NCBI GenBank assembly: GCA_030950965.1
Contig: JAUZQP010000123.1
Coordinates: 1-25,457 of the forward strand
Origin: Mariprofundaceae bacterium
Lineage (GTDB): Bacteria > Pseudomonadota > Zetaproteobacteria > Mariprofundales > Mariprofundaceae
Reading direction: 5' to 3'
Length of the DNA stretch: 25,457 bases
The notes beneath the pieces are model-generated. The model was not told the DNA's origin. It saw only the letters and a program-made list of their open reading frames with translations, and made no database searches. This document shows positions 5,034-11,746 of this stretch, in pieces (the first letter of the stretch is position 1; every line of letters starts with the position of its first letter). The translations under genes and the position numbers were made by a program.

Positions 5034-5569
5034 TGGCAATCGATGACGATGATCCTTTTGCTTCGGCTATGCGTGAAGTTGCCCCTATCAGCAGCAATAA
5101 ACACAGACAGAGCACGCAGCAACCACCTAAAGCGCGGGATGTGATTAAACAAAGACGAGAAGCAAGCCCACAAACTGCGCCTATCAATAATAGTGCGTCC
5201 CGACACGCACCTGCATCACAGCCCGAACCGTGGAGCTTACGCGCCAATGGCGTCTCCTCGGTGGTCGTGAGACGCTTGGCAGCAGGGCAACCACCGATTG
5301 CCACGACCTTAGATTTGCATGGCATGCACCGTGAACCATCCTTAGAGCAACTCCGCAAGGCTATTCACACCGCTAGTCAGCAAGGTCAGCGCGTTTTGCG
5401 GGTCATTCATGGGCGTGGCATGCACTCTTCGAATCGCCCTGTATTAAAGCAAGCGGTGTACCACGATTTACAACACGGCCCATGCGCCCACCATGTGTTA
5501 GCTGCCATTCTTGAACCCAATAGTGCCGGCGGTGCGTGCTTGGTATTACTACGCCGCGATCGTTCATGA
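5033..5569 (+). CDS. Smr/MutS2 domain protein (SmrA-like)
   Basis: DDDDPFASAMREV N-terminus, LDLHG, VIHGRG and GGACLVLL C-terminus. Confidence 0.88.
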   Translation: MAIDDDDPFASAMREVAPISSNKHRQSTQQPPKARDVIKQRREASPQTAPINNSASRHAPASQPEPWSLRANGVSSVVVRRLAAGQPPIATTLDLHGMHREPSLEQLRKAIHTASQQGQRVLRVIHGRGMHSSNRPVLKQAVYHDLQHGPCAHHVLAAILEPNSAGGACLVLLRRDRS

Positions 5570-5588
5570 CTTGTAACCATTCACTACC

Positions 5589-5684
5589 CACCGCTGGTTT
5601 TCCCGCCCTCTGCGTTGAAAGTGCTCATTTACCAAAACGTAAACTGCGCGCTTTCGCCTTGAGGGCGAAAAAACAGAGGCGGTG
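5589..5684. repeat. ERIC-like long intergenic hairpin (family D)
   Basis: Nested inverted repeats: CACCGC/GCGGTG, CGCCCTC/GAGGGCG, GAAAG/CTTTC, TTTAC/GTAAA. The minus strand carries CAAGGCG...CAACGCAG. Confidence 0.6.
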
Positions 5685-5687
5685 TAA

Positions 5688-6311
5688 ATGGTTACCGTGA
5701 CTTTGCGGGTTATTCGGCACGAACGTCAGGACTACCCCGAGTCAGTACAAGAGCAAGAAAGCATCGTCGCTGATCTGCTGGCAGGGCGCTGTGGCAATAC
5801 CCTGATTATTACCGAACATCCGCCCGTATTTACCCTTGGCACATCCGCTCAGCCCAGCGATGTATTACAACGCCACTTTGACGATGCCGACGTTGCCGTT
5901 CACGACACAGGTCGGGGCGGCGAAGTCACCTACCACGGGCCAGGTCAATTGGTGTGCTACATGATTGCCGACCTGCGCGAGGCGCGCGATTTACATCGTC
6001 ATGTACAACAACTTGAAGCGATGGTCATCAATACGTTAAGTGACCTCGGTTTACACGGAGAACGCTCACCTCGTGGAATCGGTGTATGGCTTGGTAACAA
6101 TAAAATAGCGGCTGTTGGCGTGCGTTGCCGTCGTTGGATCACCTTTCACGGTATCGCTCTGAATAACAACACCAACCTCAACCATTTCAGCGGTATCATA
6201 CCCTGCGGCATGCGCGATGCCCCCGTCACATCGTTACGTCACGAAGGTGTCATGATTGATCGTCCCACCCTAGAAGGGCATCTGATTCACCACGCGCGTT
6301 GTTTTTGGTAA
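5688..6311 (+). CDS. lipB: Lipoyl(octanoyl) transferase LipB
   Basis: EHPPVFTLG, RGGEVTYHGPGQLV, KIAAVG, HGIALN, IIPCG. Confidence 0.95.
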   Translation: MVTVTLRVIRHERQDYPESVQEQESIVADLLAGRCGNTLIITEHPPVFTLGTSAQPSDVLQRHFDDADVAVHDTGRGGEVTYHGPGQLVCYMIADLREARDLHRHVQQLEAMVINTLSDLGLHGERSPRGIGVWLGNNKIAAVGVRCRRWITFHGIALNNNTNLNHFSGIIPCGMRDAPVTSLRHEGVMIDRPTLEGHLIHHARCFW

Positions 6312-6350: not shown

Positions 6351-6437
6351 CTGGATTGCAGCTTTTACTAGGTTGTTTATAGTATGGCTTCTGTGGTGTT
6401 AGCCAAGGCGTAACACTCGGCACTCAGGAGGCTGATG

Positions 6438-6851
6438 ATGAAAATAGTTTACGTGAGCATAATGGTTTATTTGGCATGTTTGCCATTTTCGCTCCATGCA
6501 GCACCATTAAATAAATTTGGCACCATACAACAGCAGATGACTGTGCCGCAAATGCAACAAACCGCGTTACCCCCTCCCATACAGCAACAACCCATTGCAG
6601 ACATCGCACCTCAAGCGGTTGAGCCTGTTCAAGCTGCACCTGTTGTGAAAAAAGAAAAACATACAGTCATACTCAATAAAGTGGAAAAATTACTCTCGAG
6701 TTTACCCTTGGAAAAATTAAAAGCGTGGCAGGGAAGATTTGAAGATAAGCGTCAAGCTGCGAAGCAAGCGGGAAAAACAAACGTGATGAAATACTATAAT
6801 AACCTCATTGTTTTATGTGAGAAACTCAAAAAAGATGGTGGACAACCATGA
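6438..6851 (+). CDS. Hypothetical exported protein (signal peptide, Q/P-rich linker, basic helical C-terminus)
   Basis: AGGAGG at 6426-6431 favours ATG 6438. Sec-like leader MKIVYVSIMVYLACLPFSLHA. ATGA overlap with the next gene. Confidence 0.75.
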   Translation: MKIVYVSIMVYLACLPFSLHAAPLNKFGTIQQQMTVPQMQQTALPPPIQQQPIADIAPQAVEPVQAAPVVKKEKHTVILNKVEKLLSSLPLEKLKAWQGRFEDKRQAAKQAGKTNVMKYYNNLIVLCEKLKKDGGQP

Positions 6852-7408
6852 AACATCTATTCATTCTACTATTATGCTGCACGATTACTAATGTAAGTTT
6901 AGCGAATGAAGCCATGGATGAGGCGGCGATTGACGCTGCATTGAATGCGGTGGTGGCTGTTGGTGAACAGATGACAGAAGATGCACCTGCTGCCTCTTCG
7001 CTTCCTCCTGTTGCCGCCCCCATTATTGCTACGCCTGTAAGTAAACTTTCAGCGCTGCCTGACATCGTGCAAGTTAACCGCAGTGAACTCAATACATGGA
7101 TGCAGCAGCAGCAAATACAAGCGAATGTCATCACCAATCAAGCGAATAATCAATTGTGGACGACCACATTATTGGCGGCGGTCTGGTTGATTACTTTTAT
7201 TATGCTTTTGCAGTTCATGCGCCGTGAAGGCTGCAAAGAGTATGTAAATATCATTGGTTTGAATCTAATTATTTTTGCCACGGTATTTATGGTATTGGTG
7301 GTAGAAACAGATCAGCAATTAACTGCCGGTGCTGGGATTCTTGGTGCCATTGCAGGCTATATATTCCGCGCTATGCAAAGTGAACAACCGGGGGAAAGTA
7401 AGTCATGA
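6848..7408 (+). CDS. Hypothetical membrane protein (signal peptide, A/P-rich linker, about 3 C-terminal hydrophobic segments)
   Basis: Leader MKHLFILLLCCTITNVSLA. Hydrophobic stretches LLAAVWLITFIMLL, IIGLNLIIFATVFMVLVV and GAGILGAIAGYIF. ATGA overlaps on both sides. Confidence 0.78.
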   Translation: MKHLFILLLCCTITNVSLANEAMDEAAIDAALNAVVAVGEQMTEDAPAASSLPPVAAPIIATPVSKLSALPDIVQVNRSELNTWMQQQQIQANVITNQANNQLWTTTLLAAVWLITFIMLLQFMRREGCKEYVNIIGLNLIIFATVFMVLVVETDQQLTAGAGILGAIAGYIFRAMQSEQPGESKS

Positions 7409-9353
7409 CCCTGCCTGTTGTGATTGATCACAACCATGCGGTGGAGCTTGCTCCACGCATTTGGTGGGTAGGGCATGTGCAAGAGGATGACCCTTTTCAA
7501 TGTCATGTGTATTTAATTGAACAGGGTGAACATTCGGTGTTGATTGACCCTGGTTCTAAACTCACCTTCGCGCACACCCTGAGAAAGATTGAAGAAGTCA
7601 TTTCTAAGTAGGTGCACAAAAGTCTTTTAACATTTCTAGCTTGCCTATTCGCGCGATATTCTTCGTTATGAAAAACGTTATATATTAACAATATGCGCCG
7701 TTTTCATGCCTTGACTTTCACGAAATATTCGGCGCAATAAATTGTCAAAAGACTTATGCACACCTACTTATCAGCCACATCCGCTATTTTATTTGCCAAC
7801 ATCAAGACCCTGATATTGCAGGAGCTATGCCGTTAGTTGATGCTTTAAACACCCATAAGGATGCTGTGCTGGTAACGCATTGGCGGGCTAAAATGTTGCT
7901 GCGTCACTATGACCTTGCTATGCCCTTTTGGTTGGTGGATGAACATGGTTGGAAGCTGGAGCTAGAAGACCGTACTTTGGAATTTGTGTTTACACCATAC
8001 GCTCATTTTCCTGGCGCTTTTGTCACCTATGACCATGCGAGTAAGGTCATGTTTTCCAGCGACCTTTTTGGTGGTTTGACGAAAGAGTTTTGTTTGTTCG
8101 CTAAAGACACTTCGTATTTGGAAGCGATGAAGCCATTTCATCAGCATTATATGCCGAGTAACGAAATTCTTCAGTTTGCTGTGACTGAAATGGAACGCTA
8201 TCCGATGAAAATGATTGCACCGCAGCATGGTTCAATCATCCCACAGCCGCTGATTCAAACATGTATAGACTACCTCAAAGGGTTGGACTGCGGCTTGTAT
8301 ATGCTGCTGGGGCGTGAAAGTGATATACAAAAGCTATCGCGTTTTAATGAAACACTAAAAAAAATCACCCGCACCATGATGGTATGCCGTGATTTTAAAG
8401 AAATTGCCCAAGGCTTGTTAGATATTATCAGCGGTGAAATTGAGGCGACTTCGTTGAGTTTTCATGTGCGTGATGCACAGAATCAAGTGCTTTATTTCCA
8501 TAGTCGAAATCGTTACAGAGGCGTTTCCTACGAAATGCCTGAAGTCATCAGTACATGGTTGGACAACCCACAATCAAACGATCAACCTTATGTGTTCGCA
8601 CACGACAAAACACATGACAAACACTACATTTTTGTTCCACTCAATGCCCAACATGGACTTCACGATGAAGAAAGTAGCATCAACACAGTGGTGCAAATTG
8701 AACTAGCGCAGAAGCAGCCGTCCGAACCACACTTGAAACGCCTATTGGAGCAAATGATGCTGCCATTGCAAGTGGCGATTGAACGCGAAATGATTTTTCG
8801 CGATATGGATAAAAAACGGGAGGAGATTTATGCCCGCGCTATTCGTGACCCTTTAACAGGTCTATTCACCCGTGTATATATGCAAGATATGATGCAAACG
8901 CTACTGGAGCAAGATGATCGCAACAAAAATAAAAACATCTCCGCTGTGATGATGGATATTGATCATTTCAAACGTGTTAATGACACCTATGGTCATCCAC
9001 AAGGTGATATTGTATTGAAGAAAATCGCCGCCTGCTTGTTGGAAAACTGCCGCTCTGGTGATATTCCCGTACGCTTTGGTGGTGAAGAGTTCATCACCTT
9101 TTGCACCGGTACAGCAGAGCATAACAGTAATCGTTTTGCTGAACGTCTGCGCGCCAGTATTGAATCACTATCATGGCCATACCCTATGACCGAGGAGGCC
9201 ATTACCGCCAGTTTTGGCGTTGCCCTACGCATTGATTATGAATCACTGGATGATTTAATTCAACGCACCGATGATGCACTTTACCAAGCTAAACGAGGCG
9301 GAAGAAACCGCGTGATTACCGCTGATGATCAGCAGGAACATCAACACCGTTAG
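7405..9353 (+). pseudogene. MBL-fold (ODP-type di-iron) + GAF-like + GGDEF diguanylate cyclase, interrupted by a MITE
   Basis: The 5' fragment 7405-7605 (VELAPRIWWVG...VYLI...VLIDPG) joins in frame to 7770-9353 (ISHIRYFICQHQDPDI...AHFPG...SSDLFG...IAPQHG...DPLTGL...DIDHFKRVNDTYGH...RSGD...RFGGEEF...ADDAL-like TDDALYQAKRGGRN) once 7606-7769 is removed, giving 594 aa. Confidence 0.88.
7607..7768. mobile_element. 162-bp MITE (family E) with a TA target duplication
   Basis: 26-bp terminal inverted repeats match 22/26 (AGTAGGTGCACAAAAGTCTTTTAACA vs AGTAGGTGTGCATAAGTCTTTTGACA). TA flanks both ends (7605-06, 7769-70). Non-coding and AT-rich, and excision restores the frame. Confidence 0.88.
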
Positions 9354-9372
9354 TATAGCAAAAAGCCATGAC

Positions 9373-9446
9373 TGGAGCGGGCAACGGGAGTCGAACCCGT
9401 GTAATCAGCTTGGGAAGCTGAGGTAATACCGTTATACCATGCCCGC
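9373..9446 (-). tRNA. tRNA-Gly (anticodon CCC)
   Basis: Reverse complement: GCGGGCA acceptor/TGCCCGC, anticodon arm TCAGC-TTCCCAA-GCTGA, T-arm ACGGG-TTCGACT-CCCGT, 3' TCCA. 74 nt. Confidence 0.96.
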
Positions 9447-9538
9447 TTAAAGTCAATGTGCAGCGTATGCTGTCATATTGCTGTTTGTGGTCAACTGTAT
9501 TCATCGCGCTGCCAAGCGAAACCACACTATAAGTATGG

Positions 9539-9564
9539 CAGGAGCAGACTTTGATCTGCTCCTG
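9539..9564. terminator. Perfect 10-bp hairpin downstream of recQ (CAGGAGCAGA-CTTTGA-TCTGCTCCTG)
   Basis: Perfect stem 20 nt past the recQ stop, but no clear U-tract. Confidence 0.4.
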
Positions 9565-9583
9565 CGTCAACGAACGATCAGGC

Positions 9584-11746
9584 TTAGTTTACGCCAATGG
9601 CTTCGCGCCAAGCTAGGACTAGGCGAAACATCTCGTTGCTGAGGTCAATGCTTAGCTCTTTTTTGAGTTCGGACAAAGAGGCGTAAGGATCAGCATCATC
9701 CAACTCTTCCATGACCGTCTCAAAATCTTCTACTAAGCTTGGTACATCAATATGGTAAGCGCCGCGAACCAATGCAATATAATGATTGAGTACGGTCTTT
9801 TCACTTACGCCTAATGCTGCTCCGATTGCCTCAAGGGTGTTACCTTTACGGTACAATGCCCATGTATGCCCCTGCGCATCGGTTGGGGATGACCCTTTTG
9901 CCATCAGCTTGAGCGCGTGCTGGCCCTTGCCAGTCTCTTTGGCTGCCTCATCGCGGGCATATTGTTCCAACACGGGACGGAAAAACGCCGCGTAAGCATC
10001 GAATTTGTGCTGTCCCATGCCGCTGAGGCGCAACAGTGCCTCATCAGTGACCTTATTGATTTGACTCATTTCGGTCAATGTGACATCGCTGAATAATGTA
10101 TGGGGTGCTACTTCTTCACGTTCCGCCAAAAAATCACGTACTTCAACGAGCTTTTTAAACAGCGCTTCGTTACGTCCTTGACTAAAACGTTTAAGCTTGC
10201 GCTTAATACCTGGTTGGTAACGAGCGAGGATAACAGGGGTATTATCACGCAATAAAGCGCGCCCTTTTTTGCTAATGGTTAGCGCACCACGGCGAGACAC
10301 ATCCTGTGTAAAATAACCTTGATGTACAAGTTGACGTAAAATCGCCATCCATTCATCGACATTAATGGTTTTATTAAAAGCATGCATTTTTAAACGTTCG
10401 TGCTTATTGGCTAAAATACGTGCGTTTTTTGAACCACGTAAAATATCGACAATATAGCCGATGGCAAAGTCACCCTTAGCATCACGAACACATTGCACCG
10501 CCGCCTGAGAGAAATCGGATGCATCATAAGTTTCAGGTGGGTCAAGACAGACGTCACAATTGCCGCAGTCTTCTTCGCGTTCTTCACTAAAATATCCCAG
10601 TAACACACGACGACGGCAGGTTAATGCCTCCGACAATGCCACCATACTGTTCAGTTTGTGGATTTCGACACGGCGTTGTTCGAGGTTTTCCACATTTTCA
10701 ATCAGACGGCGTACTAAGTTCACATCACCAGAACCGTACAGCAACAAAGCTTCAGACTCTAAACCATCACGTCCAGCACGACCTGTTTCTTGATAATAGG
10801 ACTCGATACTTTTTGGCAAATCATGATGAATAACGAAACGCACATTGGGCTTATCCACTCCCATACCGAAGGCAATGGTCGCTACAATCACGTTGATGCG
10901 GTCACGCAGAAAGTCATCTTGCACTTTTTCACGCGTCCGACCAGGCATACCTGCATGGTAGGCCGCAGCACGAATGCCGTGACGTTGCAGGTTTACTGCC
11001 ATATCTTCTACACGCTTACGCGACAAACAATAAATAATGCCTGACGCGCCTTTCCAATCCTCTAAGAACTGTAGTACTTGCGTCAACGGTTGGCGTTTTT
11101 CGGACACTAAGTAACGAATGTTGGGACGGTCAAAGCTGGAGACAAAGCATTTCGCCTTGGTCAAAGCCAGTCGCTCGGCAATATCTTCCCGCGTGTGTTC
11201 ATCCGCTGTTGCTGTGAGTGCAATCATCGGTACATCGGGCATCACGGTACGCAATTCGCCTAATCGTACATACTCAGGGCGGAAGTCATGCCCCCATTGC
11301 GACACACAGTGCGCTTCATCAATGGCGAACAATGCCACTTCTATTTTCTCTAAGCGGGCAAGGAAGGTCTTGGTTAAGAGCCGTTCTGGTGCAACATAGA
11401 GTAGGTCGAGTTCGCCAGCTTCAAATTTTGCCAAAATTTCTTTGGCCTCAGCAGATTTCAATGATGAGTTGTAGTATTCCGCTTTAACGCCACAGCGTGT
11501 TAAGGCATCTACCTGATCTTTCATCAGCGAGATCAAGGGTGATACCACAATCCCTGTGCCTGGGCGCATAATGGACGGAATTTGGTAACACAACGATTTA
11601 CCACCACCTGTCGGCATCAGCACGAAGGCATCTTTGCCATCAAGCAGTGAGCAGATAATCTCTTCCTGCATGGGGCGAAACATGTCATAGCCGAATGTGT
11701 CTTTTAGGACTTTTCGAGCGTGTTCTTTAACTTTTTTTGTAGCCAT
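9584..11746 (-). CDS. recQ: ATP-dependent DNA helicase RecQ
   Basis: MPTGGGKSLCYQ, IDEAHCVSQWGHDFRPEY, ATIAFGMGVDK, YYQETGRAGRDG, Zn cysteines (CRR...CGNCDVC), RQC and HRDC regions, plus a C-terminal extension. Confidence 0.96.
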   Translation of the reverse strand: MATKKVKEHARKVLKDTFGYDMFRPMQEEIICSLLDGKDAFVLMPTGGGKSLCYQIPSIMRPGTGIVVSPLISLMKDQVDALTRCGVKAEYYNSSLKSAEAKEILAKFEAGELDLLYVAPERLLTKTFLARLEKIEVALFAIDEAHCVSQWGHDFRPEYVRLGELRTVMPDVPMIALTATADEHTREDIAERLALTKAKCFVSSFDRPNIRYLVSEKRQPLTQVLQFLEDWKGASGIIYCLSRKRVEDMAVNLQRHGIRAAAYHAGMPGRTREKVQDDFLRDRINVIVATIAFGMGVDKPNVRFVIHHDLPKSIESYYQETGRAGRDGLESEALLLYGSGDVNLVRRLIENVENLEQRRVEIHKLNSMVALSEALTCRRRVLLGYFSEEREEDCGNCDVCLDPPETYDASDFSQAAVQCVRDAKGDFAIGYIVDILRGSKNARILANKHERLKMHAFNKTINVDEWMAILRQLVHQGYFTQDVSRRGALTISKKGRALLRDNTPVILARYQPGIKRKLKRFSQGRNEALFKKLVEVRDFLAEREEVAPHTLFSDVTLTEMSQINKVTDEALLRLSGMGQHKFDAYAAFFRPVLEQYARDEAAKETGKGQHALKLMAKGSSPTDAQGHTWALYRKGNTLEAIGAALGVSEKTVLNHYIALVRGAYHIDVPSLVEDFETVMEELDDADPYASLSELKKELSIDLSNEMFRLVLAWREAIGVN

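Follow-up and report, generated by a model that had tools for sequence, protein, structure and literature searches.

Insertion of an IS630-type MITE into an ODP-GGDEF gene of a Mariprofundaceae genome, probably a recent null allele

An ODP-GGDEF gene interrupted by a 162-bp element

The window, which is the whole stretch of DNA analysed here (25,457 nucleotides), belongs to a Mariprofundaceae MAG of 1.30 Mb in 225 contigs with a completeness of 57.7%, denoted G000. The RecQ protein encoded in the window shares 87% identity with proteins labelled Mariprofundaceae and approximately 71% with those of named Mariprofundus species. The features of the locus are listed below in window coordinates, with the evidence for each in brackets; G004 is a relative of the same genus.

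6435-6851, + strand: first gene of an operon, 138 aa, with a signal-peptide-like N-terminus (ORF and profile scans)
6848-7408, + strand: second gene of the operon, 186 aa, membrane-protein-like (ORF; 82% nucleotide identity to G004)
7405-7611, + strand: 5' ODP-GGDEF fragment, 67 native codons followed by AAG and TAG (68-aa ORF)
7605-7606, no strand: left TA of the target-site duplication (sequence read and flank comparison of copies)
7607-7768, + strand: IS630-type MITE of 162 bp, a long hairpin as a single strand (repeats, copies, flanks and folding)
7769-7770, no strand: right TA of the target-site duplication (sequence read and flank comparison of copies)
7770-9353, + strand: 3' ODP-GGDEF fragment, 527 codons, which continues the frame of codon 67 after excision (Pfam, 6qrq and orthologues)
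7800-7814, + strand: diiron-site motif HQDPD, at residues 78-82 once the protein is rejoined (alignment with 6qrq and 6qnm)
7827-7829, + strand: first canonical in-frame start after the MITE, residue 87 (ORF list and frame reading)
8220-8231: PQHG motif of the diiron site (alignment with 6qrq and 6qnm)
9051-9092, + strand: RSGD inhibitory-site and GGEEF active-site motifs (motif location)
9373-9446, - strand: tRNA-Gly(CCC), convergent with the operon (RNA family scan)

The first gene of the operon has no Pfam or NCBIfam match, and the second overlaps both of its neighbours by ATGA. These two genes are common to G000 and G004 only, where they lie upstream of the ODP-GGDEF orthologue. The ORF that starts at ATG 7405 ends with ...EEVISK and a TAG codon at 7609-7611, and the ORF listing gives two separate entries, 7405-7611 (68 aa) and 7827-9353 (508 aa). 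An earlier reading, made from the letters of the window and referred to here as the sequence-only reading, had argued that such a track masks one gene as two unrelated ORFs, and this is what is found. When the MITE and one TA are removed (7405-7605 joined to 7770-9353), the rejoined gene comprises 594 codons with a terminal stop and zero internal stops. The junction reads ...EEVIS-ISHIRYFICQHQDPDIAGAM, or EEVIS followed directly by ISHIRYFICQHQDPD; the target TA straddles codons 67 and 68, and excision restores TCT-ATC.

The profile matches are divided at the same point. Positions 1-37 of the Pfam ODP profile (162 bits) are located in the 5' piece, and positions 39-194 are located in the 3' piece together with positions 1-161 of GGDEF (140 bits). 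In the solved structure of the Treponema denticola ODP (6qrq), the 5' piece matches residues 22-63 and the 3' piece matches residues 66-245; the split corresponds to residue 64/65, inside the sensor fold. The MITE lies 10 codons ahead of HQDPD, the first metal-ligand motif, and the remainder of the gene is intact, in agreement with the earlier claim that a MITE splits an ODP-GGDEF gene just before this motif and with a recent event. The RSGD sequence (RxxD inhibitory site) is located five residues upstream of GGEEF, and both are undamaged. The domain order of the encoded protein is ODP sensor, middle domain and GGDEF cyclase; as encoded, ODP and GGDEF are not carried by a single polypeptide, as they would be in the rejoined sequence. 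This architecture (approximately 590-610 aa) is common, with 1,729 proteins at E <=1e-30 among the candidates scored, and such proteins are routinely annotated as "diguanylate cyclase". The next feature downstream is the convergent tRNA-Gly gene, so a polar effect of the insertion on another gene is not expected.

The inserted element occupies 7607-7768 within this gene, as read in the sequence from 7300 to 7950. After the TA at 7605-7606, its left end begins with AGTAGGTG..., and the mirrored right end ...CACCTACT closes at 7768 and is followed by TA. A single inverted pair is present within 7500-7900, with arms at 7605-7635 and 7740-7770 that are 31 nt long including the TA and 84% complementary; counted by hand from the first base of the element (AGTAGGTG), the TIRs match at 22 of 26 positions. 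The length of 162 bp, the TIR count, the TA on both sides and the stop at 7611 had all been given in the sequence-only reading, and each was found again. A repeat-bounded insertion of 162 bp of this kind is far beyond chance. The G+C content of the MITE is 36%, compared with 48.5% for the genome, and its single strand adopts one long hairpin at -26.8 kcal/mol (z = -4.6), a stability that none of 200 shuffled sequences equals. The element is short and non-coding, and its 162 bp leave no room for a transposase-sized ORF. TAA and TAG are present in two frames within the TIR, of which TAG is in the frame of the gene; this TAG (7609-7611) lies wholly inside the MITE, 3 nt from its end. The net insert of 164 bp (the MITE and one TA) is not divisible by three and shifts the frame.

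The MITE family and an IS630 partner

The sequence-only reading had suggested looking for other copies of the element, and a search of the 1.3-Mb assembly yields approximately 33 MITE copies or fragments, which are the copy in the window and approximately 32 more. A young subfamily comprises 14 copies at 90-100% identity, 12 of which are at 94% or above, and the remaining copies are at 70-81%; the window copy differs from the subfamily consensus at 4 of 162 positions. TA is present on both sides of 13 of the 14 full-length copies, and one is flanked by TA and TG. Only the window copy, one of 13 full-length copies, is located inside a long ORF. A second genic insertion was considered on contig C174 and rejected, because that copy lies approximately 58 bp upstream of a gene start and is intergenic. 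At least seven copies are found at contig ends in G000, which indicates that the family contributes to the fragmentation of this assembly.

Copies at 94% identity or above are confined to G000. In G004, 22 matches are observed at 68-84%, the best copy being at 84%. Elsewhere in the Mariprofundaceae, one full-length copy is present in one further genus, in G017 the match is limited to a 37-nt fragment (E 1.6e-4), and no MITE match is found in 37 other genomes sampled from the family. A contig of a public Mariprofundus sp. MAG (L115) carries a copy that is 98.8% identical to the copy on contig C208 of G000. The end motif TAAGTAG-N5-CAWAAGTCTTTT is also present in many genomes of Methylococcaceae and Beggiatoaceae, and this IS630 subgroup is thus widespread.

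Pfam DDE_3 matches one place in G000, on contig C194 (approximately 315-1479). The transposase ORF at this place is intact and encodes 327 aa, scores 191 bits against the NCBIfam model transpos_IS630 (NF033545, cut-off 100), and contains HTH domains and DDE_3 (positions 2-146 of 146, 102 bits). The element is approximately 1.17 kb in length and begins with TA followed by AGTAGCTGACCATAAGTCTTTTAAC... and ends with ...GTTAAAAGACTTATGCTCGCCTACT followed by TA. With a DDE model above the cut-off, TIRs and the TA duplication, it is an insertion sequence of the IS630 family; an IS630-like element with ends of the AGTAGGTG type, which had been proposed as something to look for, is thus present in the genome. 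The left TIR of the C194 element is identical to the start of the older MITE subfamily (C208, C138 and C173) over the 14 nt compared. The right TIR of this element agrees with the end of the window MITE at 22 of 26 positions, its TIRs overall match at 21-22 of 26, and its ends differ from those of the young subfamily at 4-5 of 26 positions. The C194 transposase probably mobilised the MITE in trans, although a transposase copy with ends identical to those of the young subfamily may lie in the 42% of the genome that was not recovered and be the actual mobiliser.

The classification of the element as a MITE of the IS630/Tc1-mariner type, as originally proposed, is supported by the TIRs, the TA duplication, the multiple copies and the presence of a cognate IS630 transposase. 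A literature search returned no paper connecting MITEs with Zetaproteobacteria, and the elements represent a previously undescribed IS630-derived MITE family, with an autonomous partner, in the Mariprofundaceae.

Orthologues and timing

Full-length orthologues of the rejoined protein are present in five genomes, as obtained from a six-frame search of 30 relatives. Residues 1-520 align to G004 without gaps at 84% identity, and the four other orthologues align over the full length at 41-46%. The DNA of G004 is uninterrupted at the site (...GAAGTCGTTCCCATCACC...), with no element and no TA, a presence/absence difference between orthologous sites that speaks for transposition. Non-contiguous alignment of orthologues across the junction had been named beforehand as the observation that would count against a split gene, and the orthologues in all five genomes are contiguous there, which leaves that objection without force.

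The orthologue in G004 carries a frameshift of its own, immediately downstream of GGEEF. Set against P0041/L161, an independent fragment of a third lineage, this orthologue is short of one unit of a tandem CACAA (a 5-nt deletion), and the G004 copy thus appears to have been broken independently by slippage. Five other members of the genus were searched, and four of them (67-95% complete) give only domain-level matches and no ODP-GGDEF orthologue. Taken together, the frameshift in G004 and the four congeners with no orthologue found are consistent with ongoing loss of this gene in the genus. In the recovered part of G000 (58% complete), strong GGDEF genes number only two and there is a single further ODP gene, which suggests that the loss is not trivially redundant.

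Intact alleles were sought in several collections. An exact-protein look-up of the 508-aa ORF returns no record, and no near-identical intact protein is found, the best full-length match being 58% identical. P0041 (81% match) was considered as a near-identical intact allele and rejected, because it is a C-terminal fragment that stops short of the site. The recQ contig of a relative (L157, 85% nucleotide identity) was likewise set aside as uninformative on the site, because synteny ends at the recQ stop codon and the neighbours beyond are different. Searches of metagenome contigs with exact left-flank and degenerate right-flank patterns give zero matches, and queries for sequencing runs with 6900-8500 and 7830-8800 likewise yield none.

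For the G000 and G004 genes, dN/dS is 0.04 with dS saturated, and the amino-acid changes in the N-terminal half, polarised by two outgroups, are symmetric (6 versus 6). These values suggest that the gene was under purifying selection until recently, and selection of this kind appears to have acted for essentially all of the time of divergence between G000 and G004. The insertion is probably recent relative to the species split, a resolution that the data do not refine: four differences in 162 positions do not suffice to date it from divergence. Additionally, by a rough estimate, a neutral gene of 1.8 kb would have approximately a one-in-four chance of remaining free of stops at that divergence, and the intact frame does not therefore prove extreme recency.

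Interpretation and comparison with known systems

We consider it highly probable that a lineage-specific, recent insertion of an IS630-type MITE has produced a null allele of the ODP-GGDEF gene. In this mechanism, an IS630 transposase acting in trans, such as the one at approximately 315-1479 of C194, would have moved a non-autonomous MITE of the IS630 family by cut and paste into the TA at codons 67/68 of the gene that closes the three-gene operon. The TAG inside the element and the 164-bp frame shift would end translation at residue 68 and leave the other 527 codons without a promoter or a proper start. The outcome would be the loss of a sensor-coupled c-di-GMP synthase in this Mariprofundaceae (Zetaproteobacteria) MAG, and the insertion would be part of a young lineage-specific burst of MITEs that followed the split from the nearest sequenced congener. 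Removal at the RNA level (intron or ribozyme) was considered and rejected, as an Rfam scan of the region returns no family at the gathering threshold. Translational bypass was rejected, since the gap of 164 nt contains the TIR stops and, to our knowledge, far exceeds known translational hops.

The 3' fragment could conceivably have acquired a function of its own, as a sensor-free cyclase expressed from ATG 7827 or from a rare start in the MITE. An open frame of 508 codons follows ATG 7827, AGGAG lies just upstream, and both GGEEF and the inhibitory RxxD site are undamaged. However, a consensus scan of 7200-8000 detects no sigma-70-like site on either strand (shuffle mean 1.9), and an outward promoter within the MITE was rejected on the same scan; the AGGAG is only 2 nt from the ATG, in coding sequence that is conserved in G004, and the long MITE hairpin lies upstream. 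No ATG, GTG or TTG occurs in the downstream frame between the preceding stop and 7827, where only the rare starts ATA, ATC and ATT are found. A product initiated at residue 87 would lose 86 of the approximately 245 residues of the metallo-beta-lactamase fold, including the first strands and HQDPD, and would probably misfold. Low-level restart at ATG 7827 or at ATA, ATC or ATT may occur, and a new function for the fragment is very improbable. The sequence-only reading had described the Met7827 product as lacking HQDPD, which is correct (residues 78-82 precede the start at 87), and as a sensor-uncoupled cyclase, which is speculative and, in view of the promoter scan, the AGGAG spacing and the curtailed fold, unlikely. 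Least credible of all the alternatives is an assembly artefact in which the assembler placed the repeat in the gene by mistake. The MITE does break the assembly elsewhere, as the copies at contig ends show, but at this site the element is complete, with both TIRs, an exact TA duplication and unique flanks collinear with the orthologues, and a mis-join would not create a target duplication.

The alternative with the best, if still small, chance concerns the population rather than the gene. Since a MAG is a population consensus, the filled allele may be one of two, with intact cells coexisting and no programmed switching, and the assembler may have given the commoner path. The fragmented state of the assembly, the otherwise undamaged and strongly constrained gene, and the young, apparently active MITE family would all accord with such a standing polymorphism, and the zero metagenome contigs with either flank and the lack of an identical protein on record bear neither way. 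A reversible on/off switch, in which precise excision of the MITE at a useful frequency would make c-di-GMP output phase-variable, had been raised in the sequence-only reading; it is unsupported and deserves very little credence, if slightly more than the functional fragment. The frame is exactly restored once the MITE and one TA are removed, the genome encodes an IS630 transposase that is potentially active, and scarless excision that restores a gene is known for an IS of another family, ISAba13 (PMC9038732). On the other side, slippage-based precise excision would find a poor substrate in a repeat of only 2 bp, and a literature search returned no record of precise excision for IS630-type elements. 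Excision of the IS630 type (ISY100/Tc1-mariner) leaves the site broken on both strands, with staggered ends, and does not seal it, which also argues against a switch. Furthermore, the G004 gene carries a frameshift and searches of four further congeners did not find the gene, a pattern that looks like loss, and 12 of 13 full copies lie outside long ORFs, as expected from selection against genic insertions. A broader version, to which we give a slim chance, is that an O2/Fe(II)-sensing cyclase has been repeatedly, and possibly reversibly, switched off in the genus by two high-rate devices, the MITE at TA here and the loss of a CACAA unit in the sister species, to give mixed ON/OFF populations. 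If this were true, cells ON and cells OFF for attachment or stalk behaviour under c-di-GMP control would live side by side along gradients of oxygen and iron.

An ordinary recent knockout in a lineage that is losing the gene is the most likely explanation. For annotation, the gain is one disrupted ODP-GGDEF gene in place of two unrelated ORFs. Additionally, the host, an uncultured marine iron oxidiser that is obligately microaerophilic, seems to have been deprived only lately of one of the two strong GGDEF genes recovered from its 58%-complete genome, one with a sensor of the O2/Fe(II) type, and its nearest relative broke the same gene in a different manner, which is a small but concrete hint that this O2/Fe(II) sensing route is dispensable.

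The sensor can be compared with the ODP of T. denticola (PDB 6qrq and 6qnm), which Muok et al. are said to have described in 2019 as an oxygen-binding diiron protein that serves as a chemotaxis sensor. The sensor of the broken gene matches residues 22-245 of that protein and retains HQDPD and PQHG, whereas the spirochaete protein is stand-alone and the one described here is fused to a GGDEF cyclase. Among mobile elements, a close counterpart is RUP of Streptococcus pneumoniae, reportedly presented by Oggioni and Claverys in 1999 as an IS630-derived bacterial MITE. The two are alike in a non-coding length of approximately 100-200 bp, TIRs like those of a resident IS630, the TA duplication and many, mostly intergenic copies. 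They differ in that the sequences are unrelated, the host here belongs to the Zetaproteobacteria, the copy lies inside a coding gene, and mobilisation is deduced in the present case.

The Correia elements (NEMIS) of Neisseria are high-copy elements of 100-160 bp with a TA duplication, TIRs of approximately 26 nt and hairpin transcripts, and they carry outward promoters; we know of no cognate transposase for them. The present family resembles them in the TA duplication, the TIRs of approximately 26 nt, the size, the hairpin and the many copies. In contrast to them, it has a cognate IS630 in G000, and no promoter-like site is detected in 7200-8000. Correia elements are also discussed in a study of Candidatus Thiomargarita nelsonii (PMC4853749).

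The switch at the capsule locus of Acinetobacter baumannii rests on observed revertants that arise by scarless excision of ISAba13 (PMC9038732). As there, a mobile element sits in a gene and its exact removal restores function (here, the frame); the element family and the length of the duplication differ, and the present case is known from the filled allele alone. The nearest parallel among environmental bacteria is Candidatus Thiomargarita nelsonii, in which a MITE interrupts hupL and a single filled allele is demonstrated by PCR (PMC4853749). That MITE has 10-bp direct repeats and no IS630 partner, and the gene is a different one. Insertional knockout is an ordinary kind of mutation, and gene-disrupting MITEs are already known from environmental bacteria (PMC4853749); the two cases share an environmental host, a burst of MITEs, a hit in an important gene, and an analysis in which the flanks are rejoined and compared with orthologues.

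The ODP-GGDEF gene and its surroundings

In the sister species G004, of the same genus, the orthologous ODP-GGDEF gene has no MITE at the site but carries a frameshift shortly 3' of the GGEEF motif (L032:2838-2860, G004:C27). Sequence comparison reveals that a tandem CACAA repeat has one unit fewer in G004 than in L161, an independent fragment from a third lineage, and the missing unit is typical of slipped-strand loss. Conservation persists in the G004 segment past the frameshift, with a dN/dS of 0.15.

In the recovered part of the window's own assembly, G000, which is 58% complete, the sole other ODP-domain gene is located at G000:C132:4177-4749 (L158) and the sole other strong GGDEF gene at G000:C166:4559-5017; the c-di-GMP repertoire of this incomplete genome appears to be small. 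A comparison of the window (9353-9584) with the recQ contig of a close relative (L157:3131-3235) reveals that collinearity breaks exactly at the recQ stop, with the two recQ genes sharing 85% nucleotide and 95% amino acid identity. Beyond this point the relative's contig carries, in place of the tRNA-Gly and the sensor operon of three genes, a set of genes whose G000 counterparts lie on other contigs.

MITE copies and neighboring repeats

Truncated copies of the MITE family are located at the ends of G000 contigs C103, C189, C87, C35, C123, C66 and C168, which indicates that the family contributes to the fragmentation of the assembly and that the real copy number exceeds the count. Three copies from two subfamilies share an identical 3' flank, TAGGTAACTC (G000:C74:302-311, C12:7910-7919 and C138:9341-9350), which suggests that they are nested in, or have a preferred target within, another repeat. 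Additionally, a distinct short repeat is present at window 5536-5700 and at L002:529-666, where it directly adjoins a MITE copy on C174; the spurious ORF translations of the two are near-identical (...ALCVESAHLPKRKLRAFAL...), and this repeat is probably another MITE family.

The IS630 element and distribution beyond the genome

The element taken as the autonomous partner of the MITE is as follows.

IS630-family element on contig C194 of G000
L041:315-1479, minus-strand transposase of 327 aa: intact element of ~1.17 kb, TA on both sides

This element follows immediately on 20 codons of an ORF starting MARKSRIHLPGGFYHVMMRG, whose frame is not resumed beyond the element. The start of this ORF resembles that of REP-associated/IS200-like tyrosine transposases at their N-terminus.

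In a Mariprofundus sp. MAG, contig JAUZRH010000293.1 (L115) carries a MITE at 129-292 with 98.8% identity to G000:C208:346-509, next to an 80-nt repeat with 91% identity to sites on G000 C128 and C1; these matches therefore indicate a mobile repertoire common to Mariprofundaceae MAGs. The genome contigs of loci L046-L125 show that many hits to the end motif TAAGTAG-N5-CAWAAGTCTTTT come from Methylococcaceae (Methylobacter, Methylovulum, Crenothrix and Methylocucumis) and Beggiatoaceae (Parabeggiatoa and Thiomargarita), with sporadic hits in other phyla. These ends mark an IS630 subgroup with conserved termini and a wide host range.
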